A DNA stretch of 64,000 nucleotides, taken from NCBI GenBank assembly GCA_016186955.1, contig JACPKP010000002.1, positions 5,566 to 69,565 on the forward strand, read 5' to 3'. This document shows, in pieces, positions 1,813 through 47,787 of this stretch (the first letter of the stretch is position 1; every line of letters begins with the position of its first letter). The notes under the pieces were generated by a model. That model was not told the DNA's origin. It saw only the letters and a list, made by a program, of their open reading frames with translations, and ran no database searches. Made by a program: the position numbers and the translations under genes. This stretch comes from Candidatus Daviesbacteria bacterium. GTDB taxonomy: Bacteria > Patescibacteriota > Microgenomatia > Daviesbacterales > UBA10151.

Positions 1813-3201
1813 GTGAAATCTTCTAAAGTTAGGCAAAAATATTTTGATTTTTTTACAAAAAAAGGGCACAAATTAACGCCTTCTTCCTCCATTATTCCGT
1901 CTGACCCCACCACCCTTTTTACATCCGCTGGCATGCAACCCATGATCCCCTATCTTTTGGGTGAGGCCCATCCCCAGGGCAAAAGGATAGTCAACTCCCA
2001 AAAGTGTTTCCGCTCCCAGGACATTATGGAGGTTGGAGACAACCGCCATACCACTTTTTTTGAGATGCTGGGCAACTGGTCTTTTGGGGACTATTTTAAA
2101 AAAGAGCAGCTGGGTTGGGTTTTTGAATTTTTAACAAAGGATTTAGGGCTTGATCCCAACAAGCTTTATGTGACTGCATTTGAGGGCAACGGGCAGATCC
2201 CCAAAGATAGGGAGACAGTAGAGATCTGGCAGGAGCTTTTTAAAACTGCAGGGATTGAGGCAAAATTAAATGAGAGAATTTTTCTCTACGGCGCTGCCAA
2301 AAACTGGTGGACCAGGGCGGATTCTCCGGAATCTATGCCTGAGGGTGAACCGGGCGGGCCTGACTCTGAAGTGTTTTATCTGTTTGACCAGATTACCCAT
2401 GACCCAAAGTTTGGCAAAAAGTGCCATCCGAATTGTGATTGCGGCAGGTTTTTGGAAATTGCCAACTCGGTTTTTATGCAGTACCAGAAAAAAGATAAAG
2501 GTTTTATAGAACTTCCCCAAAAAAATGTTGATTTCGGCGGGGGTCTGGAGAGGTTGGTAGCAGCTTGTCAAAACCAACCTGATATTTTCAAAATAGACCT
2601 GTTTTGGCCTATTATTGAAAAGCTTAAAGAGGATCTCCGGGTTGAATATGGTGATGGTCAAAATTCCACAGCCTCACTGAGGGTTATTGCAGACCATATC
2701 AAAGCTGCCACATTTTTAATCAAGGATGGGGTTACACCTTCCAATAAGATGCAGGGGTATGTTTTAAGAAGGTTGCTCCGCCGCTGTGCTGTAAAAATCC
2801 ATGCATTACCGCAAGGCCGTCCTGCACGAAGTGCGGACGGGAGTCTAAATGACTCCCGGGCCTGGGAGGCTAATGATATATTACCTAAACTGGTAGACCC
2901 TATCATTGATATATACCAAGAAACGGATTACTTCCAAACAGGGGATTGGGATCAGATCAGACAAACTATCGCAGAAGAACTAATTAAATTCAAGCAAACA
3001 TTAAAAAGAGGTTTGAGACAAATTAAAAAGATTGACAAAGTCACGGGCAAAAATGCATTTGATCTTTACCAAAGTTATGGCTTTCCTTTTGAACTCATCG
3101 AGGAGCTGTTTTTAGAAAAAGGGCAAAAAGTAAGCAGGGAGGAGTTTGACAAAGAGTTTAAAAAACACCAAGAGTTATCCCATCAGGGTTCTTTTTTGTA
3201 A
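1813..3201 (+). CDS. alaS: Alanyl-tRNA synthetase, catalytic/tRNA-recognition core only (462 aa, no editing or C-Ala domains)
   Basis: N-terminus KYFDFFTKKGHKLTPSSSIIPSDPTTLFTSAGMQP and later FEMLGNWSFGDYFK match class II AlaRS motifs. The stop is followed by an unrelated minus-strand gene. Confidence 0.85.
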   Translation: MKSSKVRQKYFDFFTKKGHKLTPSSSIIPSDPTTLFTSAGMQPMIPYLLGEAHPQGKRIVNSQKCFRSQDIMEVGDNRHTTFFEMLGNWSFGDYFKKEQLGWVFEFLTKDLGLDPNKLYVTAFEGNGQIPKDRETVEIWQELFKTAGIEAKLNERIFLYGAAKNWWTRADSPESMPEGEPGGPDSEVFYLFDQITHDPKFGKKCHPNCDCGRFLEIANSVFMQYQKKDKGFIELPQKNVDFGGGLERLVAACQNQPDIFKIDLFWPIIEKLKEDLRVEYGDGQNSTASLRVIADHIKAATFLIKDGVTPSNKMQGYVLRRLLRRCAVKIHALPQGRPARSADGSLNDSRAWEANDILPKLVDPIIDIYQETDYFQTGDWDQIRQTIAEELIKFKQTLKRGLRQIKKIDKVTGKNAFDLYQSYGFPFELIEELFLEKGQKVSREEFDKEFKKHQELSHQGSFL

Positions 3202-18077: not shown

Positions 18078-19655
18078 ATGTTAAGAATTGAAGGCTTGGA
18101 AGCGGTAGAATATCTGGAGAAAGCCCGCGGGACTATCCACAAAGAGGATACGGTTTTCAACCTGCCCTATCTTTCTAAAATGCTGGAGCTTGAGGCTTTA
18201 TTCCTCCAAAGGACCATGCAAAGCGGCCTCCCGGAAATTGCAGGGATCGCCATTGATGCAACCGGGTTTCCGGAGATTAACGGGTGGCGGGCGGACCTGT
18301 CCAAAATAATGGAGCAGTTCAATAACTTGAGGGGGAAACGGGAGCTTGAGCTTAGACCATTCCGGCAGCAGCTGCTGAATGCCTCTCCTGACGGCATAAT
18401 CTCAGCAGGCGCTAACCTAGCTGTAAAGCTCACTGAGGATATTCCGCTGATCCAGGCTTTCAGCGGGACTGACGACACCTTCAAAAAGGCGGTAAGTTCA
18501 GAAAAAGAACCAGGTTTGCCATTTTCCAAAAAAACAAGTTTCCCCGGGCTGCTGTTTACTGCTACCCCTTCTGACCCCCATAGGCTCAACCAAGGCCTTC
18601 TCAAATATTCCAAAAGTCTGGAATATGCTTTTAAGCTGGTTCCTGTTTTTAGGGAAGAGACTGTTTTATTTTGTGCCGGAATTTATTCCGGCAGGGTTAA
18701 TTTTTTAAACCGGCTGGATAAAAATCAAGGCTTGGCAAGCCCTCTAAGTAAACCTGAACAGCCAAACACACCCCAATATCTACCAGACTATTCAACCGCT
18801 TTTGAAAAAAACGTGCTGGGCTATGAACAATCCATACAACATGCCCTGCTTAATTTTGATGCTGCCAGGTTCAGCAGCAGCCAGGTTGATCAATATCTTG
18901 ATGCCCTTGCCCAGCTAAATAAATTAATAGCCAAATCTAAAAAATTCATGGATGCTGCCTTAAATTGTGATTACCAGACCAAAGAGGAGATAAACAGTTC
19001 AATTTTGGAAATTGCCGGAAAGACAAACGATATTTACTCCTCTTTGGATAATGATGAGCTGAGGAGCAGCTTGCAGCTTGCCATGGGTGGAAGCCTGGAT
19101 GCAGCCTACGGGCAGCCTAAACCGGAGCTGCAGCCGGCTCAAAACCTTGCCTTAAGAGCTCCCCGCCCGGTAGATCAAAAAGAGAATTTAAAATACAGCG
19201 CCAGGCAAAGGCTCCGGGAAATTCTGGAGGAGGTAAAAAAAGAGCCTGCAAATGATAAAACATCCAAAACTCTGCTTGATAAAGCTTTAGAAAATTATGG
19301 TTTTATAGAAAGCCTGGTAAATGAACCCGCCTTCAAAAATTACATTAATTTTATCAACCATAACCATAAATTCCGGGTTGTGCTTGCAGGCGGAGGTTTA
19401 TGTCCTTGGAGAATAGACTTGGGCAGCAAGAGCATTTATGTCGAGGGCTGCGGCGGTAGAAAAATATTTGAACAGGGTAATTCAGAGTATATAACTCATT
19501 TTTTGACTGTCGGTCGATTTGGAGATCCTACGCTGCTGGTGAGTAGAGAAAACCTTCAGGATTGGTGGAACAAGGATGGTGATTACTGTTATGTAAATGC
19601 TTTAGGGAAGATAACAAAAGAAAAACTAGTCAAAACAATACTAAACAAGCTTTAG
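18078..19655 (+). CDS. Orphan 525-aa hypothetical protein (GC-richer than its surroundings)
   Basis: Long ORF with coding-like composition and no recognisable motif. Its GC content is visibly higher than flanking housekeeping genes. Confidence 0.5.
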   Translation: MLRIEGLEAVEYLEKARGTIHKEDTVFNLPYLSKMLELEALFLQRTMQSGLPEIAGIAIDATGFPEINGWRADLSKIMEQFNNLRGKRELELRPFRQQLLNASPDGIISAGANLAVKLTEDIPLIQAFSGTDDTFKKAVSSEKEPGLPFSKKTSFPGLLFTATPSDPHRLNQGLLKYSKSLEYAFKLVPVFREETVLFCAGIYSGRVNFLNRLDKNQGLASPLSKPEQPNTPQYLPDYSTAFEKNVLGYEQSIQHALLNFDAARFSSSQVDQYLDALAQLNKLIAKSKKFMDAALNCDYQTKEEINSSILEIAGKTNDIYSSLDNDELRSSLQLAMGGSLDAAYGQPKPELQPAQNLALRAPRPVDQKENLKYSARQRLREILEEVKKEPANDKTSKTLLDKALENYGFIESLVNEPAFKNYINFINHNHKFRVVLAGGGLCPWRIDLGSKSIYVEGCGGRKIFEQGNSEYITHFLTVGRFGDPTLLVSRENLQDWWNKDGDYCYVNALGKITKEKLVKTILNKL

Positions 19656-19665
19656 AAATTAAATA

Positions 19666-20790
19666 CTATCCTCCGCCTCTATAAATTTTAGGTGTCAGCC
19701 AGTCTGGCGTTGGGGTCCCCCCATCTGGTGAGGCCGTTGCTGCGAATTCCCCGGACGGTACCTCCTCCGGTGATGGTACATCCTGTTGCGGTTGTATGTT
19801 TGTTGCCCCGATTTTTTTTTGGACTTGTTCTGTTTGAGGCTGTTGCGGTTGCTGCCCGGCTGGCGGTGAGCCTGCCGGATCCGCTGGCGGCGTTACGGGA
19901 ATCTGGAAGACTTTACTCAAGTCAAAGCCCTGCACAGCAGGTTCCTGCTGGGGTGGTTCGCTATACTGGATAGGGCTTGCATGCCCGCTAGCAGGCTGAA
20001 CAGGAGTTTGCACGGGTTGCGGAGTCTGCACGCTTTGGCCCTGCACCCTCCCGCCTGCCTGCATCGCCTGCCCTAGAGAAATAAACGTATCCGCAGTTAG
20101 GTTGTTTGTCAAATTGCCGGTTGCATCATAGATCCCTGTCAGGATATTTGTTGCAATATCCCCATCCAGGTTCAAACCCAAACCAGGAATAAGCTGTATC
20201 ATCATCTCGGAGATGGAATTGGTTGCAGGATCCACTATATTTACAGAACCAAAATTGGAGTTGAGGGATGAGTTATCAATATTTATAAGCGGGATATTTT
20301 GAAAACTCTGGATGTTTTGCTGGTAAACTGCACCAAGTTGGTTGGGCTGACCGGCGCCTATTGTAAAAATCATGTTGTAAGCGCCGCCCTGATATTTTGG
20401 GGTAATATGAACCGGCTCAAACCTCTGGCCGGGCACAACATGAAAAACCAGATTTAAGTTGGCGCCCTCAGGGTACCAGTCCAGCTTCTCAAGCGCAGGG
20501 ATCTTCCCTGAAGAATCCACCACGCCTTCCAACATCAAAGTTAAATCACCGCCGCCCTTAGGCAGTTCATTTGCCACATCCCCAACTCCATATAAATTAG
20601 TGTGTGAAACCCTGATTGTATCCTGTGTCACTAATGCCGCCCTTTTACCCGACTGTTGCAAAGAAAGCATCAGGGACAACGCAGCAGCCAGCTTATCCAC
20701 AGTAATTTTGGTAGGAAGAAAGATCAATATGTTTGAGGCTGAGGAAACCTGGTTTTTTAAATCTCCAAGCTGTAAGTCATATTTAGACAT
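19666..20790 (-). CDS. Hypothetical protein, possibly a degenerate DHH/DHHA1-like pseudo-phosphoesterase, with a Pro/Gln-rich C-terminal tail
   Basis: N-terminus ILIFLPTKITVDKLAAALSLMLSL resembles the NrnA-type motif I but lacks the His/Asp residues. The C-terminal 120 aa are low-complexity P/Q-rich. The gene is GC-rich. Confidence 0.35.
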   Translation of the reverse strand: MSKYDLQLGDLKNQVSSASNILIFLPTKITVDKLAAALSLMLSLQQSGKRAALVTQDTIRVSHTNLYGVGDVANELPKGGGDLTLMLEGVVDSSGKIPALEKLDWYPEGANLNLVFHVVPGQRFEPVHITPKYQGGAYNMIFTIGAGQPNQLGAVYQQNIQSFQNIPLINIDNSSLNSNFGSVNIVDPATNSISEMMIQLIPGLGLNLDGDIATNILTGIYDATGNLTNNLTADTFISLGQAMQAGGRVQGQSVQTPQPVQTPVQPASGHASPIQYSEPPQQEPAVQGFDLSKVFQIPVTPPADPAGSPPAGQQPQQPQTEQVQKKIGATNIQPQQDVPSPEEVPSGEFAATASPDGGTPTPDWLTPKIYRGGG

Positions 20791-20839: not shown

Positions 20840-21043
20840 TCAAATGGGATCAAAGAAGTGGCGGAATAAAGGTACATAAAGATTATCCATCTCTATTTTT
20901 TCCTCAGGCGTCAATGGACCTTGTTTATAATGGAGCTCCCCGTAGCGGGCCATTGCTTGGGAATAATTTTCCCCGTCAAACAGGTCATTATAGGTAAAGG
21001 TGAGTAGTGCACTGCCCAAATCCTGTTCCGGGCTTTTTGGCAT
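20840..21043 (-). CDS. Small hypothetical protein
   Basis: 67-aa ORF with no recognisable motif. Confidence 0.25.
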   Translation of the reverse strand: MPKSPEQDLGSALLTFTYNDLFDGENYSQAMARYGELHYKQGPLTPEEKIEMDNLYVPLFRHFFDPI

Positions 21044-21128: not shown

Positions 21129-21467
21129 TTACCCGCAAGGCCAGTCATGTCTTTTTCTTCCTTCTATGAATTTATCTATTATTACTTGATGCCGTCTATA
21201 TAATTCAAGCTCCTCTCCAAAATTGGCCTTTTGCTCTTCACTTGGATGAGGAAATGCAGTTTCAAATTGACCTATGGTAAAAACTTCTGTTATTTCATCA
21301 TGGGATTTAGGTTGATCTATTTTTAACAGATTTTCAATACTTGGATGTTCCATGCAGTGAACATATTGTTCACTATAAACCGTTCTCTCTTCTGCCACAT
21401 GATATTTTCTTACAAATTCTTCTGAATTTGGGCAGATCTGAATTTCAGGCAAAGACATGCTTAACAT
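21129..21467 (-). CDS. Hypothetical protein
   Basis: 112-aa ORF immediately downstream of the duplicated infB-end repeat. Confidence 0.3.
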   Translation of the reverse strand: MLSMSLPEIQICPNSEEFVRKYHVAEERTVYSEQYVHCMEHPSIENLLKIDQPKSHDEITEVFTIGQFETAFPHPSEEQKANFGEELELYRRHQVIIDKFIEGRKRHDWPCG

Positions 21468-21487
21468 TATAACACAGGTTTCAACTT

Positions 21488-21537
21488 ATAATGTTCTAAA
21501 ACTTTGGACTAAATCCCCAATCTGGAAATCAACCTGA
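21488..21537. repeat. Direct repeat: synonymous-variant duplicate of the last 16 codons plus stop of infB, bounding the AbiE-like cassette
   Basis: The minus strand reads QVDFQIGDLVQSFRTL*, identical at protein level to the true infB end at 22404-22453. The two copies differ at 6 of ~50 nt, all synonymous, with TAA versus TAG stops. Confidence 0.7.
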
Positions 21538-21546
21538 TATTTTCAT

Positions 21547-22203
21547 TTACTTGACTAATTTGCCTCCAATTTTTTTTGCTAAATTCCGGAAATAATCTTT
21601 TAGCTCATCTAAAGTCAGCGGCAAAATCATCTTAGGAAGATACTCAAAAGACTCTACTTTTAAAAAACTTGAAGCGATGACTAGTGGGTCAGTTTTTATT
21701 CCAAATTTTTTCTGTACTCCTCCTATTAAATCCCAAATTGTAAATCTTTTTAAAAGAAAATAAAGGTCAACAAAATCTTTAACTTCTGCCCTTTGCTCTG
21801 TCATCAATAACTTATTGGCAGCAATATCAAATAAACTGTCAACCTTAACCCCATCTTTTACAATTAAAGGCTCAAGTCTTTTATAAGGATAAAACGCAAA
21901 ATCTACCTTGACTGCATTTTGTTTAGGGAAAGTTAAAATATAAACTTGAGTTTCTTCAGCCGGGACATACTCAATTTTAAAGTGGTATTTATTTTTTAAA
22001 AGATTTAATTTTGTTAATATAGTTTGAGAGTCGAATTCCTGTTCTGAAAAAAAATCCAGGTCAACTGAAATGCGGTGGTTAAGGTAATACAAAGATAAGG
22101 CAGTCCCGCCGGAAAAATAAAAATTAGCGCTAAGAAATGGATCCACTGCAAATTCAGAAAGTAACAATTTTTGCTCAGAAGAAATAATAGTTATTTTCCC
22201 CAT
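21547..22203 (-). CDS. AbiEii/DUF1814-family nucleotidyltransferase (type IV toxin/abortive-infection toxin)
   Basis: FYFSGGTALSLYYLNHRISVDLDFF matches the AbiEii NTase motif GGTALS...RxSxDxDF. Size 218 aa. Confidence 0.7.
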   Translation of the reverse strand: MGKITIISSEQKLLLSEFAVDPFLSANFYFSGGTALSLYYLNHRISVDLDFFSEQEFDSQTILTKLNLLKNKYHFKIEYVPAEETQVYILTFPKQNAVKVDFAFYPYKRLEPLIVKDGVKVDSLFDIAANKLLMTEQRAEVKDFVDLYFLLKRFTIWDLIGGVQKKFGIKTDPLVIASSFLKVESFEYLPKMILPLTLDELKDYFRNLAKKIGGKLVK

Positions 22204-22391
22204 ATTAGAAGCTGAAATAATCTCTTTCTGAGGGGTAAGAGGTGTAATTTACCCCAATGCTTTTTAACTTCCTCCAGTTTTATCCTCTTATTACCCTCTC
22301 TGCCATAGTTAATTAATCTTTCAAGCAGTAAGATTCTGCCTGATTCGGTTTTTTGAAGTTTTTTTTGGTCATAATCCCAAATTAGAGCCAT
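22191..22391 (-). CDS. Small ORF overlapping the AbiEii start; candidate cognate antitoxin or fragment
   Basis: 66 aa, 13-nt overlap with the toxin gene in typical TA arrangement. No wHTH recognised. Confidence 0.35.
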   Translation of the reverse strand: MALIWDYDQKKLQKTESGRILLLERLINYGREGNKRIKLEEVKKHWGKLHLLPLRKRLFQLLIWGK

Positions 22392-22403
22392 ATTTTTATT
22401 ATA

Positions 22404-23933
22404 CTATAACGTCCTGAAACTCTGCACTAAATCCCCGATCTGGAAATCAACCTGGGGCTCAAATATCATCCCGCATTCATCCCCCTTTTCAACCTTCACT
22501 ATCTCTTCCTTAACTTTTTTAATGGATTTTATCTTCATCTCTCCTATAACCTTATCTCCACGCACAACCCTTGCCTTTGGCCCTTTTGAAATATTACCGT
22601 CTAAAACCTTACATCCTGCAATCCGCTCGTTTTTGCCATACGGAAATTCTGCCACAATCTGCGCAGTCCCAAAAACCTCCTCAATCGCCCCCACTTTTAA
22701 CATCTCCTCCACTACCTGTTTTAACTCATCAATCAACTCATAAATTATTGTGTAAGTCCTGACTAAAACATGCTCATTTTCTGCAATCTTTTGGGCGGTC
22801 GGGACAACAATACTGTTAAAACCTATCACAATTGACCTAGTTGAGGCAGCAAGTTTTATATCTGATTCCATAATCCCACCTGTCCCTGAAGATATTACCT
22901 TGACATGCTCACCCCCAGTATTAAATCCCTTGAGCGCTTCCTCTATCGCTTCCAACGAACCCTGTTTATCAGCTTTTATCACCACATTCAAAGTTGTGGT
23001 ATCAGCCTGCCTCAATTTATCAATTAAAGATCTGGTTTCACTTGACTCTTGACTCTTGACTCTTGACTCTTCCCCCAGAGCTGCCCCCACCTCAGGCACA
23101 ATTTCCAAACCCAAAACTTCAACCGGTGTTGAGGGGCCGGCGCTGTCAACAGGTTTGCCGGCAAAATCAAACATCCCCCTGATCTTACTTTTAACTCCGC
23201 CCAGCGCTATCTGGTCGCCTTTTCTTAAAGTTCCACTGCGCACCAATATTGTTGCAATCGGGCCTTTAAATTTATCCAGGTTCGCTTCAATTACCACTCC
23301 CACAGGTAAGGCCAGCGGGTCACCTTTGATCTCGTTTAACTCCGCCACCAACAAAATCATCTCCAAAAGTTTATCCACTCCTACCCCTGTTTTTGCTGAA
23401 ACAGGCACAACCGGCACATCCCCTCCATACTCTTCCACCAAAACCTTTTGGTCAGACAATTGTTTTTTAATTTTTTCAGTCTGGACCTTAATATCAATCC
23501 CCGGCAGGTCAATTTTGTTTAAAGCCACTATCATGGAGACTTTAGCTTCCTGGATATGTTTTATAGCTTCCACTGTCTGAGGCATCACCCCATCATCTAA
23601 AGCTACAACCAATACAGCAATATCCGCAACTTTTGCACCTCTTGATCTCATTTTTTCAAAAGCTGCATGGCCCGGAGTATCTATAAAAGTTATCGTATCT
23701 TCCTCATCACTTTTGACTTTTGACTTTTGACTTTTGACTTTTACCTGGTAGGCCCCAATCGCCTGAGTAATCCCACCATGTTCTTTGGCTGCAACAGAAG
23801 ATTTCCTGATAAAATCGAGCAGGGAAGTTTTTCCATGGTCAACATGGCCAAGTATTGTGACTATCGGCGGTCTGGTTTGCTCTGCCATATTTTTTATTTT
23901 TACTACCCTCAAACAAGTTGAGAGATTTCTCAC
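22404..23933 (-). CDS. infB: Translation initiation factor IF-2 (short form starting at the G domain)
   Basis: GHVDHGKTSLLD, DTPGH and NKID G-motifs with downstream IF2 domains. The likely true start is the internal MAEQTRPP. Contains two heptanucleotide-repeat tracts. Confidence 0.9.
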   Translation of the reverse strand: MRNLSTCLRVVKIKNMAEQTRPPIVTILGHVDHGKTSLLDFIRKSSVAAKEHGGITQAIGAYQVKVKSQKSKVKSDEEDTITFIDTPGHAAFEKMRSRGAKVADIAVLVVALDDGVMPQTVEAIKHIQEAKVSMIVALNKIDLPGIDIKVQTEKIKKQLSDQKVLVEEYGGDVPVVPVSAKTGVGVDKLLEMILLVAELNEIKGDPLALPVGVVIEANLDKFKGPIATILVRSGTLRKGDQIALGGVKSKIRGMFDFAGKPVDSAGPSTPVEVLGLEIVPEVGAALGEESRVKSQESSETRSLIDKLRQADTTTLNVVIKADKQGSLEAIEEALKGFNTGGEHVKVISSGTGGIMESDIKLAASTRSIVIGFNSIVVPTAQKIAENEHVLVRTYTIIYELIDELKQVVEEMLKVGAIEEVFGTAQIVAEFPYGKNERIAGCKVLDGNISKGPKARVVRGDKVIGEMKIKSIKKVKEEIVKVEKGDECGMIFEPQVDFQIGDLVQSFRTL

Positions 23934-26471: not shown

Positions 26472-27530
26472 ATGGAAGAAAATAGCAACCAACCCGACTG
26501 GTCCATTTCTGAGCTTTACGAAAAAAGTTGGGAGATAATCAAAAAAAATAAAGTACTTTGGGTTTTTGGGATGGCGCTGGCTGGGGCAGGATCATCCTTC
26601 AGCTCTTTTAGCAACTCTTCTTCCAATTTCAAAGATCTAATCAACCCTTCTTCCAGCCCCTTGGCTTCCCCTGCTTCAAACCAGATCAGCCAGGTGCTGG
26701 GTGCAGCGGCCTCAAACCCGAACTTACCCGACATAGGGCAAATTATCTTAATTCTCCCCTGGTACTTATATTTAATTTTAGGCAATATGGCGCCAATCCT
26801 CGCAAGCATCCCCTGGTACTTATATTTAATTTTAGGCCTGGAAATATTAGCCTTGGTTATTCTGGGTTATACCATCAGTATAATTTATAGTGTCTGGTCA
26901 CACGCCTCCTTAATACAGGGCGTGCAGAAAGCCCTGGGCAGTGAAAAACTAACCATAGCCGACACCTCTGAAAAGGCATTTCCAGCCATTAAGTCCTTAG
27001 CATTTTTAAGTATTGTACCAAGCTTTGTTATTGTTGGTGTGGGAATAGTCATGTCCGCAGTTTTTATATTCTTGCTGACGCTTGGCGGCGCTGTATTTAA
27101 AATTATAGCCGGGCTTTTACTGGCAGTTTGGGTTATCTTTTTCCTGCTGGCTCTTATTATGCTCTCTTTAACCTTGATCTGGTCTTACAGGGAAGTCATC
27201 CTCAGGCAAAAACCGGCCATGGAAGCGTTCAAAAGAGGCTACTATCTTGCCAAGAAAAAGCTTTGGTCAATGCTTTTGCTGGGTCTTGTCAATACCATTT
27301 TATCTGCAGTTGTCACAGGTATTCCAATTGTTGTAGCTTTTGGTGTTGTAGTAGGCGGCTTTCTTAGCTTAAGCGCCTTCAAGGATTTGGCTGTGGTTCT
27401 GATTATATTAGGAACCATCCTCTTCTTTGTGGTCATTATCGGGCTAACATTGCTTGGAGGAATCTTGAATGCCTTCAAAACTTCTGTCTGGACAATTGCT
27501 TATAACAAAATAGCCAAAAAATATGGATAA
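26472..27530 (+). CDS. Polytopic membrane protein with an internal in-frame 28-bp direct repeat
   Basis: Multiple hydrophobic helices. PWYLYLILG is encoded twice by identical 28-bp repeats at 26756-26783 and 26810-26837. Confidence 0.45.
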   Translation: MEENSNQPDWSISELYEKSWEIIKKNKVLWVFGMALAGAGSSFSSFSNSSSNFKDLINPSSSPLASPASNQISQVLGAAASNPNLPDIGQIILILPWYLYLILGNMAPILASIPWYLYLILGLEILALVILGYTISIIYSVWSHASLIQGVQKALGSEKLTIADTSEKAFPAIKSLAFLSIVPSFVIVGVGIVMSAVFIFLLTLGGAVFKIIAGLLLAVWVIFFLLALIMLSLTLIWSYREVILRQKPAMEAFKRGYYLAKKKLWSMLLLGLVNTILSAVVTGIPIVVAFGVVVGGFLSLSAFKDLAVVLIILGTILFFVVIIGLTLLGGILNAFKTSVWTIAYNKIAKKYG

Positions 27531-28158: not shown

Positions 28159-29070
28159 TCAAAACCAGCTCTTTTTTTTACCTAAACTTTGGGCTAACTG
28201 CTCATAAAGCTGTTTTTCTTTACTGGTTAAATTTTTGGGCACCTCTACTTTAACCCTCACATAATGGTCGCCGCTTCCACCTTTAAGGGTTGGCACACCT
28301 TTACCTTTGACCCTAACCAGGGAACCTGGCTGGGTTGCAGGAGGTATCCTCAGTTTGACTTTTCCATGGATAGTTTTAACTTCAATAGTGTCTCCCAAAA
28401 CCGCTTGCGGCACTGGAATTGTCTCCTCTGTAAAAATATCCGCGCCTTCTCTGTGAAAGAAAGGGTGGCGCCTGACCCGGAAAACTATATCCACATCCCC
28501 AAAACGCATCCTGGTGCCCTCATCAACCCCGGCCGGGATTTTAATAGTCATCCTCTCTTTCGCCATCCTTCCCTGGTTGCCTTCTACTCTTTGTATCTCT
28601 ATCTCTTTTGTTACGCCATGGACTGCCTCATCAAAAGTCAAATCCATCTGGTAAGTCTGCCTTCTCCTAAAACCCCTGCTAAACTCTGCCCCAAATCCGC
28701 TCATCCCAAAGATCTGCTCAAAAAGTTCAAAAGGGTCAGCAAAACCCTCACCCTGACCACTCGATGAAGACCAGCTATAGCTAAAACCGCCGTTGCCAAA
28801 AGGATTGAAACCGCCCTCAAAAGGATTGCCAGCCCGCTGGCCGCCTCCGCCGGGGGCAAACGCGCTATGCCCAAACTGGTCATAAGTTTTTCTCTTCCCC
28901 GGGTCTGATAAAACCTGATAAGCTTCAGACACCTCCTTGAATCTCTCTGCAGCCCCGGCGGTTTTATCCACATCAGGGTGATGCTGCCTGGCCAGTTTTC
29001 TGTAAGCAGATTTAATCTCCGCCTCAGAAGCAGACTTACCAACACCTAGAATTTCGTAATAATCACTCAT
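28159..29070 (-). CDS. J-domain co-chaperone (DnaJ class B/CbpA-like, no zinc finger)
   Basis: DYYEILGV...HHPDVDK (HPD) J-domain, a G/F-rich region and C-terminal substrate-binding domains. No CxxCxGxG repeats. Confidence 0.8.
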
Positions 29071-29849
29071 ACCCCTAACTCTCCTTTGCTAAACTGTCTT
29101 ATTGTATATCTTTCAATCCTTCTTTTTGGCTCCAAAACCATGCTGCCAAACATCTGCTTAATAAGTTCCAAAATTTCTATTTTCTCAGGACTTTCTGAAG
29201 ATAAAACCGCTGTTTCATTTCTGGTTATTGCATCCTTTAAATCACCACTAAATCCTGTCAGCCCTCTGCCGACAGAAAAAAAGTGGCCGTCGCTGCTGCC
29301 TATTGCCGCTCCGAGTTGTTTGGGAAAATCCCTATAAAATTTTTGTGCAGATTTGTTTGCCCCGATAAAAATATTATCCAAAATCCCTGCATTAAAAATT
29401 TCAAACCCGTCAAAATAGACCATTGAATCCTGGCTGTTGGTTGCCCTTAAAATATCCTGCTTTGTTATTGACCGGGTTAGACGGTACATCGGATGGGGAG
29501 CAACAGCCAACCCATCCTGTTTGTGGATTTCTTTTATGGTCCATTCTAGATTTTTACCGCTTGGTATATCATTTTTAAGATACAATCCAACCAGATGGCC
29601 TTCTGATGTGGTAATTTCAGATCCTACTATTACCTCCAGGTCATATCCCATCCTGCGGCAGTAATTTTTTGCATAAATTGCAGGCCCGGTAACCTCGTGG
29701 TCTGTAATGGCTAAAACATTCAGGTTCAAATTACGCGCTGCCAGATCAATTACACTTTTAGGGTCCATCCTACCATCAGACCTACTGGTATGCATATGTA
29801 AATCTGCAAATTTTATATTAGGTAAAACTTTGCCAATAATCTCTCGCAT
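29067..29849 (-). CDS. PHP-domain metal-dependent phosphoesterase
   Basis: [12 protein letters not shown] and ITDHEV histidine motifs typical of the PHP family. Confidence 0.65.
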
Positions 29850-30707
29850 TTAACCTCTCTTAATTCTTTGGACTTTGTCACTTTCGAAAAGTTTTTTCCG
29901 TTGTTTTTCGATTTCTCTAATGTGCTCTTCTACTGGCAGATTTTCTGGCATGGTTCCACCAATATCTTTAATAGCTTGTCTTACCTTTTTACCTACTACA
30001 AAATGAGTTTGATTAGCTTTATCTCCATTAGAAATTTGGTCCTTAACTAATTTTTCATCAGTTTGGGTAATTCTGAATAGGTTTGCAGCTAATTCTGTAG
30101 TACCAGCTCTATCTAAAATATCATCCTTACCGATACCCTTTTTATGCTGTATCTGTTTGTTCCTGAGTCCATATAAACCTAAGTAGCCTGCGTTATTAAA
30201 TTTTCCAAAATTAGTAACGCCTGATTTTTGTGCAGTCACAAACAATTTTTTGTTATTATCTCTAACTTCACCTCTGACAAATAGCCTCTTCTCGTTTCCA
30301 TTTAAAGATTCAAAAATTTCCTGGCGTCTAGCCTGGATTGCAAAATAAGTCTGAGCTCGGGCAATCGCTTCCTTAGCAGGATCCCCATTTTGTGCTATAA
30401 GATAACATGCATAACGCGATAGCTTATAATCCTCAATTGCCCTGATTACTTGTTTGGGGCTTCCCGCCGCGATATGTATCATTTTGTTGATATCAACAAA
30501 ATGATATTCTATTTTTTGTTTACTCTTATTACAGGCTTCTTGCGCTTTTAAAATAACCCCCTTAAAATTCCTCCATTCTGAATATTCCAGAAGCGGCATC
30601 AATGCCCGTGCTTCCCAGTACTCAAAACCATTTTCATCATTTTTTTTAATATCCTCAAAATTTTTATGGGGGGTGTTGATCATCATAAGTGAATCTTGCT
30701 TAGCCAT
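29850..30707 (-). CDS. dinD: DNA-damage-inducible protein D homologue
   Basis: Extended colinear similarity to E. coli DinD: WEARALMPLLEYSEWRNF, LSRYACYLIAQNGDPAKEAIARAQTYFAIQARRQE, GTTELAANLFRITQTDEKL, HFVVGKKVRQAIKDIGGTMPE. Confidence 0.8.
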   Translation of the reverse strand: MAKQDSLMMINTPHKNFEDIKKNDENGFEYWEARALMPLLEYSEWRNFKGVILKAQEACNKSKQKIEYHFVDINKMIHIAAGSPKQVIRAIEDYKLSRYACYLIAQNGDPAKEAIARAQTYFAIQARRQEIFESLNGNEKRLFVRGEVRDNNKKLFVTAQKSGVTNFGKFNNAGYLGLYGLRNKQIQHKKGIGKDDILDRAGTTELAANLFRITQTDEKLVKDQISNGDKANQTHFVVGKKVRQAIKDIGGTMPENLPVEEHIREIEKQRKKLFESDKVQRIKRG

Positions 30708-44990: not shown

Positions 44991-46328
44991 TTGGTGGATC
45001 GTTCAGTCTCTAAATCAGGAGGAGTGATGAAAATCAGGCTAGTACTGACAGCAACCCTTGTGGTTGCCTACGCACTGTTTAATATGGCTTACGGGCCATT
45101 TCGCACAAACGTGCAGGCTCGTATGGCTACTGGTCAGGTCTCTAATGACCCCGCCACAGCAGCGCTTGCCCGCGCTGCTGCACAAAACGACCTGCTGATT
45201 ACTTGGGTTAGCGGAATACTGGTGGCGTTGTTGGTCCTTATCTGGATCACAGTGCTTCCAACACTTCTGCGGTTACTCAGAGACAACGGCAACGGTAAGA
45301 TACACATCATCGCCCTCGTGGTGATGCTGTTTGTCTTACCTTCCCTCGCCTGCGCCCCCTACAAAAAGGACCTCCTTGAGGAAATCGCTCCAAACGAGAC
45401 GGCTTTCCTGGTACCTCTTGAGGATACCAAAGACTCGCAAGCTCAGTTTCAAAGCGTGCAGTACCTCAATGAGAAAAAGGTAGCAGGCAAGAGGGTGACT
45501 ATCCCCCAGAGAGACTTGCATAAGGGCTATATGCCCTGGGAACTCGAATACATTCCAACCATGAAGGTCATTAAGGTTGACCGTACACCTGCAGTCCGTG
45601 AGTGGACCAAGGCTACGGATTCGGGCACGAGTGCCAACAACCAGGCCTTTAGGGTGGAATCAAACGAGTCCATCGATTTTTGGATCGGAGGTGTCGCAAG
45701 CGCCTCTATCAAGGAGGAAGACGCGGCAACCTTTTTGTACAACTTCCCCAATAAGCCTTTAGCCCAGGTTATGGACAGCAATGTCCGCAACATGGTGCAA
45801 AAGATCTTGTTCAATGAGTTCGGTATCCGGTCTCTTGACCAGGGAAGGCAGGACAAGAAGGTCATTTTTTCGTATACCGAGGAACAAGTCCGCGCTGCCT
45901 TTAAACCGCTCGGCCTCACTATTGATTACGTCGGCGGCAGTGAGGGTATGACTTACGCTGATCCCAAAATCCAGGAAGGGATCAATACGGTTTTCGCGGC
46001 ACAGTTGGAGAAATCCAGGCAGGAAGCGTTAAAACGGGCGCAGGAAGAGACAAACCTCAAGGATATCTCCGTCGCTGAAACCGCAAAGCGCAAAGTTGAG
46101 CTTGATGCCGACGCGAACGCTTATCGCACAAGGACTGAAGCGATAGCTTCGGCGGATGCCTTAAGGTTGAGAGGCGAACAACTCGATAAACACCCAAGTC
46201 TGGTTGACTTTGAAGTTGCCCAGCGCTACAAGGGTGATGTACCCGAAACTGTCGTTGACGGTGGTGGTGGCAACTTACCCGGGTTTTTCTTAAACCCTGG
46301 TCGCCGCACAACTCCTGTACAACGCTAG
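44991..46328 (+). CDS. SPFH/band-7 (stomatin/HflK-like) membrane protein, GC-rich gene
   Basis: Two or three N-terminal TM helices, then a band-7-like core (FLYNFPNKPLAQVMDSNVRNMVQKILFNEFGIRSLDQGRQ) and an Ala/Glu/Arg-rich coiled-coil (LEKSRQEALKRAQEE...AYRTRTEAIASADALRLRGE). Confidence 0.5.
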   Translation: MVDRSVSKSGGVMKIRLVLTATLVVAYALFNMAYGPFRTNVQARMATGQVSNDPATAALARAAAQNDLLITWVSGILVALLVLIWITVLPTLLRLLRDNGNGKIHIIALVVMLFVLPSLACAPYKKDLLEEIAPNETAFLVPLEDTKDSQAQFQSVQYLNEKKVAGKRVTIPQRDLHKGYMPWELEYIPTMKVIKVDRTPAVREWTKATDSGTSANNQAFRVESNESIDFWIGGVASASIKEEDAATFLYNFPNKPLAQVMDSNVRNMVQKILFNEFGIRSLDQGRQDKKVIFSYTEEQVRAAFKPLGLTIDYVGGSEGMTYADPKIQEGINTVFAAQLEKSRQEALKRAQEETNLKDISVAETAKRKVELDADANAYRTRTEAIASADALRLRGEQLDKHPSLVDFEVAQRYKGDVPETVVDGGGGNLPGFFLNPGRRTTPVQR

Positions 46329-46336
46329 TTCCACAA

Positions 46337-46452
46337 CTTTCTGCCGGTTAGCCTCAAGCTAACCCTAAAGCCACACAGGCGTGGCTTGATGGGACAGCCT
46401 CAAGGCTGACAGGCAGTTGGGCCCCGATGTAACAGTCGGGGCCTTTTTTTGC
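46337..46452 (+). terminator. ~110-bp structured element (three hairpins plus a GC stem/T7 intrinsic terminator), copy 1
   Basis: Hairpins ggttagc-ctcaa-gctaacc, gccac-acagg-cgtggc and cagcc-tcaa-ggctg, then gggccccgatgtaacagtcggggcc followed by TTTTTTT. Near-identical copy at 47659-47771. Confidence 0.65.
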
Positions 46453-46492
46453 CTGCCTGCAGAAATGAATCAAAAAGATATGGGCCTGTTAC

Positions 46493-47091: not shown

Positions 47092-47643
47092 GTGAAGTCT
47101 CGTTTTAAACTCGTGCGGTTAGTAGCCGTAGCAGCTGTTTTGGTAACGGCAGTCTGGGGCTGCGCCCCAGCGCCTACGCCCACAAGTGACCAACAGCAGA
47201 CCCGGCAGCAGGACAAGCTGCTGGAAGAAGGTACCCGGCAGACCGGGATGCCCAACATCGTCAACTTCCGGGAACGGAAGATGATGAAGGACATCCTGGA
47301 ACTGCGTGACCAGGAAGGCTTGGTCACGTTCACCTACCTGGAGAATCTTTCTCCGATAGTGGTTCCGGGTAAAACCGCGCTGGGCGGAAAGTTGACGTTC
47401 CTTGGCGAGTCGGTTGGTTACGGGTTGCCGTATGCAACCCAATATACCAACCCGCAGAGGGTCATAAACCCCTACACGTCGGCGATAACCACCCTGCCCC
47501 AGGCTGACCCGAATGGGCTCTTCTCGCCGGCTTCGGCCGAGGGGACCTGGGTGATCCTGAAGGATCCGGGCAGCAATAAAACCGGGGTGGTTTACGTTGA
47601 ACCCCGGATTGTGGTTTCACCCTTCAAGTATCAACCAGACTGA
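47092..47643 (+). CDS. Lipoprotein (lipobox LVTAVWGC), GC-rich
   Basis: Signal peptide MKSRFKLVRLVAVAAVLVTAVWG followed by Cys. AAAAGGAG RBS upstream. Confidence 0.5.
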   Translation: MKSRFKLVRLVAVAAVLVTAVWGCAPAPTPTSDQQQTRQQDKLLEEGTRQTGMPNIVNFRERKMMKDILELRDQEGLVTFTYLENLSPIVVPGKTALGGKLTFLGESVGYGLPYATQYTNPQRVINPYTSAITTLPQADPNGLFSPASAEGTWVILKDPGSNKTGVVYVEPRIVVSPFKYQPD

Positions 47644-47658
47644 CTCTCGAATTCAATC

Positions 47659-47771
47659 GTTCTGCCGGTTAGTCTCAAGCTAACCCTAAAGCCACACAGG
47701 CGTGGCTTGATGGGACAGCCTCAAGGCTGACAGACAGTGGCCCCGATGTAAAAGTCGGGGCCTTTTTTTGC
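47659..47771 (+). terminator. ~110-bp structured element plus intrinsic terminator, copy 2
   Basis: Same three hairpins and ggccccgatgtaaaagtcggggcc followed by TTTTTTT. Confidence 0.65.
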
Positions 47772-47787
47772 CCAAAAAATCCCGCCC

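Follow-up and report, generated by a model that had tools for sequence, protein, structure and literature searches.

Downstream of infB, the gene for translation initiation factor IF2, a 64,000-nucleotide (nt) stretch of contig JACPKP010000002.1 (the window) carries a small two-gene cassette of the AbiEii toxin type, and on the far side of this cassette lies a second copy of the 3′ end of infB. The two ends encode the same peptide in different codons. The account that we favour, with slightly more belief than doubt, is that host homologous recombination brought in the cassette together with a foreign infB end, through a crossover within the gene. The structure belongs to a known kind, the insertions at the 3′ end of a gene that replace the gene end and leave the old one behind. 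What is new here is the sub-kilobase toxin–antitoxin cargo, the lack of a recombinase in cis, infB as the target, a host from the candidate phyla radiation (CPR) and the recurrence of the same mark at housekeeping genes.

The genomes of CPR bacteria are tiny and hold few recognisable mobile elements, and the way in which these bacteria gain accessory genes is poorly understood. The infB locus would provide a clean, datable record of one such gain, comprising a defence or addiction cassette and a foreign end for an essential gene, with the old end left as a marker. The presence of this mark at several housekeeping genes suggests a common route, recombination anchored in conserved genes, that can be searched for systematically through displaced ends in order to map gene flow in uncultured lineages. 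Such ends can also mislead gene callers and make recombination resemble point mutation, as with icd and the prophage e14.

The two 3′ ends of infB

The infB open reading frame (ORF) matches the Pfam families GTP_EFTU, IF-2, EF-G_D2 and GTP_EFTU_D2 in a profile search, and its product is 58–86% identical to the IF2 of Candidatus Daviesbacteria metagenome-assembled genomes (MAGs) over the best tblastn segment. These relatives place the host in Candidatus Daviesbacteria, a CPR/Microgenomates lineage.

The duplicated terminus had been noticed in an earlier reading of the window made from its letters alone (the sequence-only reading). The duplication is real, and the description of one shared 16-residue peptide with six synonymous differences and a changed stop codon holds, while the boundaries given there, 21488-21537 and 22404-22453, were off by 1–2 nt (Table 1). 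The copy in use, tail B, and the displaced copy, tail A, are each 51 nt long, lie on the minus strand and encode QVDFQIGDLVQSFRTL followed by a stop. They differ at seven positions, every one of them a third-codon position; six of the differences are synonymous and the seventh is TAA in tail A versus TAG in tail B. A repeat search lists the pair as family D4 (88% identical), and the third positions of tail B are GC-rich at all seven variable sites. The probability that seven random substitutions in a 51-mer would all be silent is P~1.5e-5. If instead the end had been duplicated locally and one copy had drifted freely while the other accepted silent changes only, each difference would be silent with a probability of ~0.32, giving P~3e-4 for seven out of seven. 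Differences that are silent only therefore mean that each copy evolved as a working gene end, in different lineages, and they bear out the earlier proposal that one of the two ends is of foreign origin.

Within the tails lies a 26-nt core, GTTGATTTCCAGATTGGGGATTTAGT, which occurs only twice in the window at <=3 mismatches, both times in the tails, against 0 occurrences expected from 100 shuffles. The longest exact run common to the two tails is 17 nt. Translation of tail A in the window is disfavoured: the in-frame codons before it are TGA AAA TAT and include no start codon, and its frame relative to AbiEii is +1 in the window and +2 in L005, the locus of a different species-level MAG, which makes a frameshift fusion unlikely. 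In L005 an ATG-initiated 21-codon ORF overlaps the AbiEii stop.

Comparison with L005 resolves the tails further. This locus has the same layout in diverged sequence, with IF2 86% identical (best tblastn segment) and AbiEii 94% identical to those of the window. Its displaced tail reads LVDFQIGDLVQSFRTL and a stop, using other codons (CGG, ACT, CTT, TGA), and the DNA beyond it is unrelated to that of the window. The mismatch density between the two loci is ~18% along infB, falls to ~6% from tail B to ~21600, and is back at ~18% from ~55 nt before the end of AbiEii through the spacer and tail A. This patch of low mismatch shows that the lineages of the window and L005 have recently exchanged a stretch comprising tail B and the greater part of the cassette. 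Comparison of the four tails (A and B of the window, A and B of L005) gives 0–2 differences in the 27 nt at the 5′ side and 4–8 in the 24 nt at the 3′ side, the latter being equal to the distance from distant Daviesbacteria lineages. Each tail thus consists of a common core and a 3′ arm with an origin of its own.

Upstream of the core, tail A has decayed: it reads MNLECL vs MMFEPQ in L005 and K-L vs Q-V in a further locus described below, L021, and in the window no infB homology can be aligned there. Past the core all differences in tail A are silent, so that decay is confined to the upstream part. The displaced tails of the window and L005 differ from each other by 9 nt with one residue change (P~5e-6). 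Across lineages the nucleotides of the infB tail show no conservation beyond the protein requirement.

The interval downstream of infB in related genomes

We retrieved 33 genome loci and 44 metagenome loci, of which ~65 were readable both at the infB end and on the downstream side. In most of these the homologue of a conserved gene of 374 amino acids (aa) begins 36–75 bp past the infB stop, and these are the empty sites that the sequence-only reading had proposed to look for in related genomes. The corresponding gap in the window measures 1,613 bp and holds the cassette, tail A, a 112-aa ORF and a 67-aa ORF. The variable fill, earlier taken to be 0.9 kb, is 1.6 kb instead and includes these two ORFs. 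The sole database match of the 112-aa ORF is itself, neither ORF has a family match in Pfam, PADLOC or NCBIfam, and neither occurs in any of the other retrieved infB loci.

The gap is filled differently in different lineages. A HicB–HicA pair occupies it in L021 and L071, a Gp49–HTH pair in L012, L051 and L052, and a nucleotidyltransferase (MNT)–HepT pair in L009, L047 and L080. In L059 there is a helix-turn-helix (HTH) antitoxin gene together with a separate PIN-domain gene, in L031 and L068 a DDE transposase of insertion sequence (IS) type, and in L018 an M23 peptidase; further fills occur in other loci. Such varied fills of the same gap identify the interval from infB to the 374-aa gene as an insertion hotspot, many of whose fills are toxin–antitoxin pairs.

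The cassette of the window also stands directly after infB in three other lineages, L005, L038 and L096, although the contigs of the last two stop before the tail A region is fully readable. More distant AbiEii cassettes (~60% identical) are present at many unrelated loci, some of them among other toxin–antitoxin pairs. A displaced end does not depend on this cassette: in L021 the HicAB pair, unrelated to the AbiEii cassette, lies between two infB ends, FDPQVDFIVGDIVESFRII and FDPKLDFIVGDIVESFRII, each followed by a stop, which have 10 nt differences and only two residue changes and include a serine encoded by AGT in one and TCA in the other. L018 retains a decayed tail remnant, IGDTVESLRVV, directly upstream of a -35/-10-like sequence and the start of the 374-aa gene. 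In empty sites such as L027 the real infB end occupies the position of this remnant, which favours the distal copy as the original end.

The 374-aa gene and a convergent 525-aa gene (18078-19655, plus strand) have no Pfam or NCBIfam match. The two stand where rbfA and truB usually lie, between infB and rpsO.

Displaced ends at other genes

To find other cases we scanned all of the retrieved DNA (1.57 Mb, both strands counted) for genes whose C-terminal peptide turns up again further downstream. A control with shuffled peptides gave zero matches. The real matches include housekeeping genes. At rpsO, which encodes ribosomal protein S15, three C-terminal ends stand in tandem before pnp with almost no cargo (L007, 12405-12727, and also L045 and L046). 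Copies 2 and 3 encode KGVIDKL(W/G)LSR and a stop; 11 of their 12 last codons (stop included) are silently different, one has a residue change, and the longest identical run is 4 nt. The 3′ end of dnaK (~95 nt) is duplicated in L034 (1864-1962 and 3239-3337) around a 199-aa ORF and a pair made up of a BrnT-like gene, a weak match below the Pfam cut-off, and a CopG antitoxin gene. That of dnaJ is duplicated in L050 (229-294 and ~1323-1390) around a reverse-oriented DUF1189 membrane protein gene, the copies being ~95% identical and the distal one carrying a 1-nt frameshift.

AbiEii cassettes themselves are bracketed by other gene ends. In L090 a cassette 60% identical to that of the window lies between two C-termini of a LamG-like gene (1887-1967 and 3107-3187) that share an identical core of 31 nt, on either side of which the differences are mostly silent; the distal copy, a remnant from ~3025, is interrupted by an insertion of ~55 nt. 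In L094 the cassette is convergent to an S-adenosylmethionine (AdoMet) decarboxylase gene, and beyond it are two remnants of the decarboxylase C-terminus, one young with an internal stop and the other old and silently diverged (sites 1326-1355, 406-431 and ~300-360). The copy named U1 has two non-silent changes relative to the real end. In L040-L043 the cassette lies between the copies of an exact direct repeat of 14 nt, GTTATGTTTCCCCT (L040, 4779-4792 and 5715-5728), whose distal copy contains the start codon of a SpoIID-domain gene. A match in L017 proved to be tandem paralogues and was discarded.

The displaced gene ends, mostly silently diverged, thus appear to be a recurrent feature of these genomes that is not tied to one target sequence. 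The supposition that the feature was peculiar to this cassette or to infB does not survive the HicAB pair at infB and the ends at rpsO, dnaK, dnaJ, the AdoMet decarboxylase gene and the LamG-like gene, and the occurrence at several genes suggests that recombination acts generally at the ends of conserved genes.

As a separate observation, an HTH_38/rve (IS30-like) transposase gene lies just upstream in the L040 locus, and the same is true of L041-L043.

Searches for an enzyme, a vector and an excised state

Only the two cassette genes were found between the tails, with no recombinase and no transposase, in keeping with the earlier remark that the insert has no integrase. No recombinase or integrase occurs in any filled infB gap among the retrieved loci, and none was found among ten unclear ORFs of the window that were tested, the remaining window ORFs being judged by eye only. 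The core and both tail regions lack dyad symmetry and inverted repeats. The suggestion of a self-mobile integrative element thus has no direct support.

A transposon or insertion sequence was rejected, as there is no transposase, the borders have no inverted repeats and the 51-nt repeat is not identical. An integron cassette was likewise rejected: tail A follows the AbiEii stop after only 10 nt, there is no inverted repeat, and no integrase was found among the tested window ORFs. An explanation through RNA was set aside too, as no Rfam family matches anywhere in the window. A search for a phage or plasmid vector gave no viral contig with the tail pattern, the cassette or the toxin. An exact look-up of IF2 from its ATG start returned no record, and junctions of infB to the 112-aa ORF, sought through homologues of that ORFan, gave none.

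Origin of the displaced end

The account that we favour treats the cassette as accessory DNA that occupies a hotspot of recombination immediately past the end of infB. A crossover within the last ~50–70 nt of infB, with incoming DNA from another Daviesbacteria lineage, would have introduced the infB end of the donor lineage followed by the cassette. The imported end would be tail B, now joined to infB and translated, and the earlier end would be tail A, displaced to the far side of the cassette and still attached to its original downstream DNA. This geometry would be that of a Campbell-type insertion–duplication, although a double crossover whose right arm was a short tail copy travelling with the cassette would give the same geometry. 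The most likely enzyme is that of host homologous recombination acting on imported DNA, and the addictive or defensive nature of a toxin–antitoxin pair may have favoured retention of the cassette. We favour host homologous recombination because neither a recombinase nor a site-like symmetry was found, because the same mark is present at several unrelated gene ends, and because exchange between lineages is visible at this locus. The duplication, its purely silent divergence, the empty sites, the recurrence of this cassette and the presence of other cargo at the site, and the exchange of the segment between lineages are shown by the sequences; which tail was imported, by which route the DNA entered and which enzyme acted are the parts of the account that we infer. 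As in Campbell-type insertion, the duplicated segment appears to be the incoming homology and the copies appear to be orthologous; in experiments with lacZ of Escherichia coli, a circular molecule that bears a gene segment gives flanking duplications of 109–950 bp through one crossover (PMC3240628). Of the two options that the sequence-only reading had offered, an integrative element that reconstitutes the gene end and recombination-driven cassette exchange, the second fits best.

Several observations weigh against this account. The longest identical run between the window's tails, 17 nt, is short for RecA-dependent recombination. The identity of the cassette follows that of IF2 across the four infB-linked lineages: for AbiEii and the C-terminal 280 aa of IF2, respectively, the window is 94% and 91% identical to L005, 79% (first 80 aa only) and 80% to L096, and 70% and 67% to L038. 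The junction of AbiEii to tail A also looks common to the window and L005, and together with the co-divergence this suggests an old, vertical residence at the site. A spare tail of such an age should be decayed, and tail A is intact in both. A cassette-free haplotype of the same strain was not found, as exact-protein look-ups of AbiEii and the 112-aa ORF gave only cassette-bearing contigs. Composition does not identify the native tail: the GC content of third codon positions (GC3) is 0.62 in tail B, 0.31 in tail A (like the AT-rich cargo) and 0.42 in infB, based on 16 codons per tail, and the direction is reversed in L005. Finally, the duplication begins ~49–72 nt before the stop for three different cargoes, which could point to a site-specific enzyme.

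The intact tail A has two possible explanations, periodic renewal of its 3′ arm by crossovers with cassette-free relatives, or selection acting through recurrent loss of the cassette via the core. Taken furthest, the latter would mean that tail A is under purifying selection, with the cassette repeatedly lost and regained via the 26-nt core and either tail serving infB, and that spare ends are a general recombinase-free docking of cassettes in Daviesbacteria and perhaps in other CPR bacteria. We regard this as distinctly doubtful; the observations that allow it are the apparent co-divergence of cassette and junction with IF2, the near-silent differences between the displaced tails of the window and L005, and the confinement of decay to the part upstream of the core. 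If selection does maintain the spare end, such ends would constitute a docking system for cassettes that needs no recombinase.

An alternative is that the insert is a miniature site-specific integrative cassette, of the cis-mobilisable element (CIME) or pseudo-SCC type, with the tails as attL and attR, attB in the infB tail and a recombinase supplied in trans, by another part of the genome or by a helper element, for insertion and excision. A near-identical core of 26–27 nt with strongly diverged 3′ arms, decayed homology upstream of the tail A core as expected for a P arm (in L005 and L021), a similar duplication boundary for three cargoes, and the finding of one cassette at one site in four lineages would all suit such an element, which would be the best explanation of the core with its arms and of the similar boundary; repeated excision would account for the still-coding 3′ arm of tail A, and the geometry is that of e14 at icd/icdC (PMC13626634). 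We nevertheless think it unlikely, since no related infB locus that we retrieved has an integrase-bearing element at the site, no recombinase was seen among the tested window ORFs or on inspection of the others by eye, inverted repeats are absent from the core, the infB tail nucleotides are not conserved across lineages beyond protein need, and neither the tail nor the cassette occurs on a viral contig. A single site-specific enzyme also fails to explain why related cassettes elsewhere are bracketed by unrelated gene ends (LamG-like, AdoMet decarboxylase) and why rpsO tails are stacked with neither cargo nor a shared core. These stacks and the tail pairs that lack a core are best explained by homology-facilitated illegitimate recombination, a process that PMC3240628 defines in naturally competent bacteria. 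Here the import would have been anchored in the body of infB and its far end joined by chance inside the recipient tail, leaving the native tail truncated, and later crossovers would have made the core identical. This would explain the conserved housekeeping anchors (infB, rpsO, dnaK, dnaJ), duplicated lengths that range from 14 to >100 nt and the near absence of cargo in some cases, and it may be how such structures first arise. By itself, however, it does not predict the identical core at infB and L090, and in the experimental system of PMC3240628 duplications by a single crossover were far commoner than genuine illegitimate joins. As the origin of the infB structure we consider it rather unlikely.

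Tandem duplications are common, and the infB end might have been duplicated locally, with the cassette inserted later and the spare copy left to drift. Such a history has parallels in the dnaJ pair of L050 (~95% identical, with a frameshift) and copy U1 of L094 (two non-silent changes), which look young, local and decaying. For infB it is very improbable: all seven differences in the window are silent, the L021 pair includes a serine codon switch of three nucleotides, and the 3′ arms are as far apart as those of distant lineages. The source of the window is a MAG, which raises the question of an assembly artefact joining two strain variants. This has next to no credibility, as three independent Logan assemblies (L001-L003) have the infB end, cassette and tail A identical to the window, a fourth (L004) has the cassette, tail A and the next ORF, and the junctions recur in diverged form in the MAG of L005. 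The 17-nt longest shared run is shorter than the usual assembler k-mer sizes, and the AbiEii-to-tail-A junction is unique sequence.

Comparison with known systems

The 15-kb prophage e14 in icd of E. coli K-12 excises site-specifically and leaves icdC, a C-terminal fragment; its excision yields a functional chimeric gene and clusters of synonymous changes (PMC13626634). The infB locus resembles e14 (and phage 21) at icd in that an essential or central gene receives a new 3′ end from the insert, a fragment with the old end persists beyond the insert, and the ends differ mainly synonymously. It has the border direct repeats derived from the 3′ end of an intact target gene, the protein-preserving differences (seen in L005 and L021 as well) and the unoccupied sites in relatives that go with an element of this kind; an element-encoded integrase was found neither in the insert nor in any filled infB gap. 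Unlike e14, the infB insert comprises 0.87 kb and two genes without a recombinase, and its host belongs to the CPR.

In staphylococci, SCCmec (staphylococcal cassette chromosome mec) and pseudo-SCC elements insert into the 3′ end of the conserved gene rlmH (orfX), where cassettes are stacked between direct repeats that include the last codons of the gene. The repeats, of ~15–18 bp, are recognised by the Ccr serine recombinases, and some SCC-type cassettes lack a recombinase of their own and rely on the enzyme in trans. At the infB locus, by contrast, no such enzyme is seen and there is no conserved site sequence across lineages.

With Campbell-type insertion the locus shares a direct duplication on both sides and needs no element-encoded enzyme. 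A laboratory construct of that type has identical homology, whereas the homology here is ~50–70 nt long and comes from a diverged orthologue, and the event is natural and has had time to spread, or to be inherited, across lineages. Accessory hotspots flanked by core genes are exchanged by homologous recombination in their flanks, and the interval between infB and the 374-aa gene is similar in having different small genes in each lineage and a visible patch of recent exchange; ordinary exchange of this sort leaves no duplicated gene end.

The cassette genes

The sequence-only reading had assigned an AbiEii-type module to the space between the tails, and profile searches agree. The larger ORF matches Pfam PF08843 with E=3.3e-18 and 66.9 bits (cut-off 22.5) as well as 21 PADLOC AbiEii models, and has 786 homologues. 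Residues G32, G33, D48, D50, K131, R138, D143 and D146 are invariant in 20 sequences, and the conserved catalytic residues of nucleotidyltransferases (GG/GS motif, DxD) are thus present in the predicted toxin. Relative to its closest relative, in L005, the gene has 30 silent and 13 non-silent codon differences, and it looks intact. Upstream of it the partner ORF of 66 aa overlaps the AbiEii ORF by 13 nt; the cassette measures 0.87 kb. The partner has 36 homologues with 18 invariant residues, and an ORF of 64–69 aa lies directly upstream of the AbiEii gene at most of the homologue loci examined. It has no match in Pfam, PADLOC or NCBIfam, and its structure model, which is confident and all-alpha (pLDDT 84.5), has no fold match in the PDB at E<=0.001 and no detected winged helix. 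A promoter scan did not call the TATAAT hexamer upstream of the partner, for lack of a -35 match.

Like the AbiE type IV system (AbiEi–AbiEii), the cassette has a DUF1814 toxin with GG and DxD motifs and a small, overlapping upstream gene in a two-gene operon. Unlike it, the 66-aa partner has no AbiEi match, and the toxin is short. A cognate AbiEi, with a winged-helix N-terminal and a C-terminal domain, was not found upstream of AbiEii, where the conserved partner is a different protein. The pair therefore appears to be AbiE-like by its toxin and not a canonical AbiEi–AbiEii system.

Table 1. Features of the infB region, with positions in the window
Feature	Position	Strand	Basis or remark
infB (translation initiation factor IF2)	22404..23933	(-)	509-codon ORF from GTG; probable true start is the ATG at 23885
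Tail B, last 16 infB codons and TAG stop, in use (attL-like copy)	22404..22454	(-)	direct comparison
Shared core in tail B	22426..22451	(-)	one mismatch to the tail A core
12-nt spacer TATAATAAAAAT, infB stop to start of 66-aa ORF, with TATAAT hexamer	22392..22403	(-)	read from sequence
66-aa partner ORF, presumed antitoxin or regulator	22191..22391	(-)	conserved, no family match
AbiEii-family nucleotidyltransferase gene, 218 aa, apparently intact	21547..22203	(-)	Pfam PF08843
10-nt spacer, AbiEii stop to tail A	21537..21546	(-)	aligns with L005 spacer, 1-nt indel
Tail A, displaced copy of the infB end (attR-like), TAA stop	21486..21536	(-)	direct comparison
Shared core in tail A	21508..21533	(-)	identical to both L005 cores
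112-aa ORFan, hotspot fill, 18 nt past tail A	21129..21467	(-)	GC3 0.24, AT-rich
67-aa ORF, hotspot fill	20840..21043	(-)	no family match (Pfam, PADLOC, NCBIfam)
Conserved 374-aa gene, far border of the hotspot	19666..20790	(-)	tblastn across loci

Other features of the window

Two further repeats are present in the window. A direct repeat of ~115 nt (46339-46453 and 47660-47772; families D1 and D8) has copies that are 97% identical and 1,321 nt apart, and these follow the ORFs 44991-46328 and 47092-47643. The repeat has no Rfam match; its fold comprises a long hairpin, after which come a GC-rich terminator hairpin and a T run (minimum free energy -61.7 kcal/mol, z = -5.1). At 26724-26831 two tandem units of 54 nt, 74% identical, lie in a membrane-protein ORF (26472-27530), in whose product a segment of the type LPWYLYLIL is repeated. 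BRO-N proteins are often phage-derived, and on the minus strand at 29067-30707 a BRO-N domain gene (285 aa) lies adjacent to a PHP-domain gene (260 aa), with no other phage genes noted nearby.

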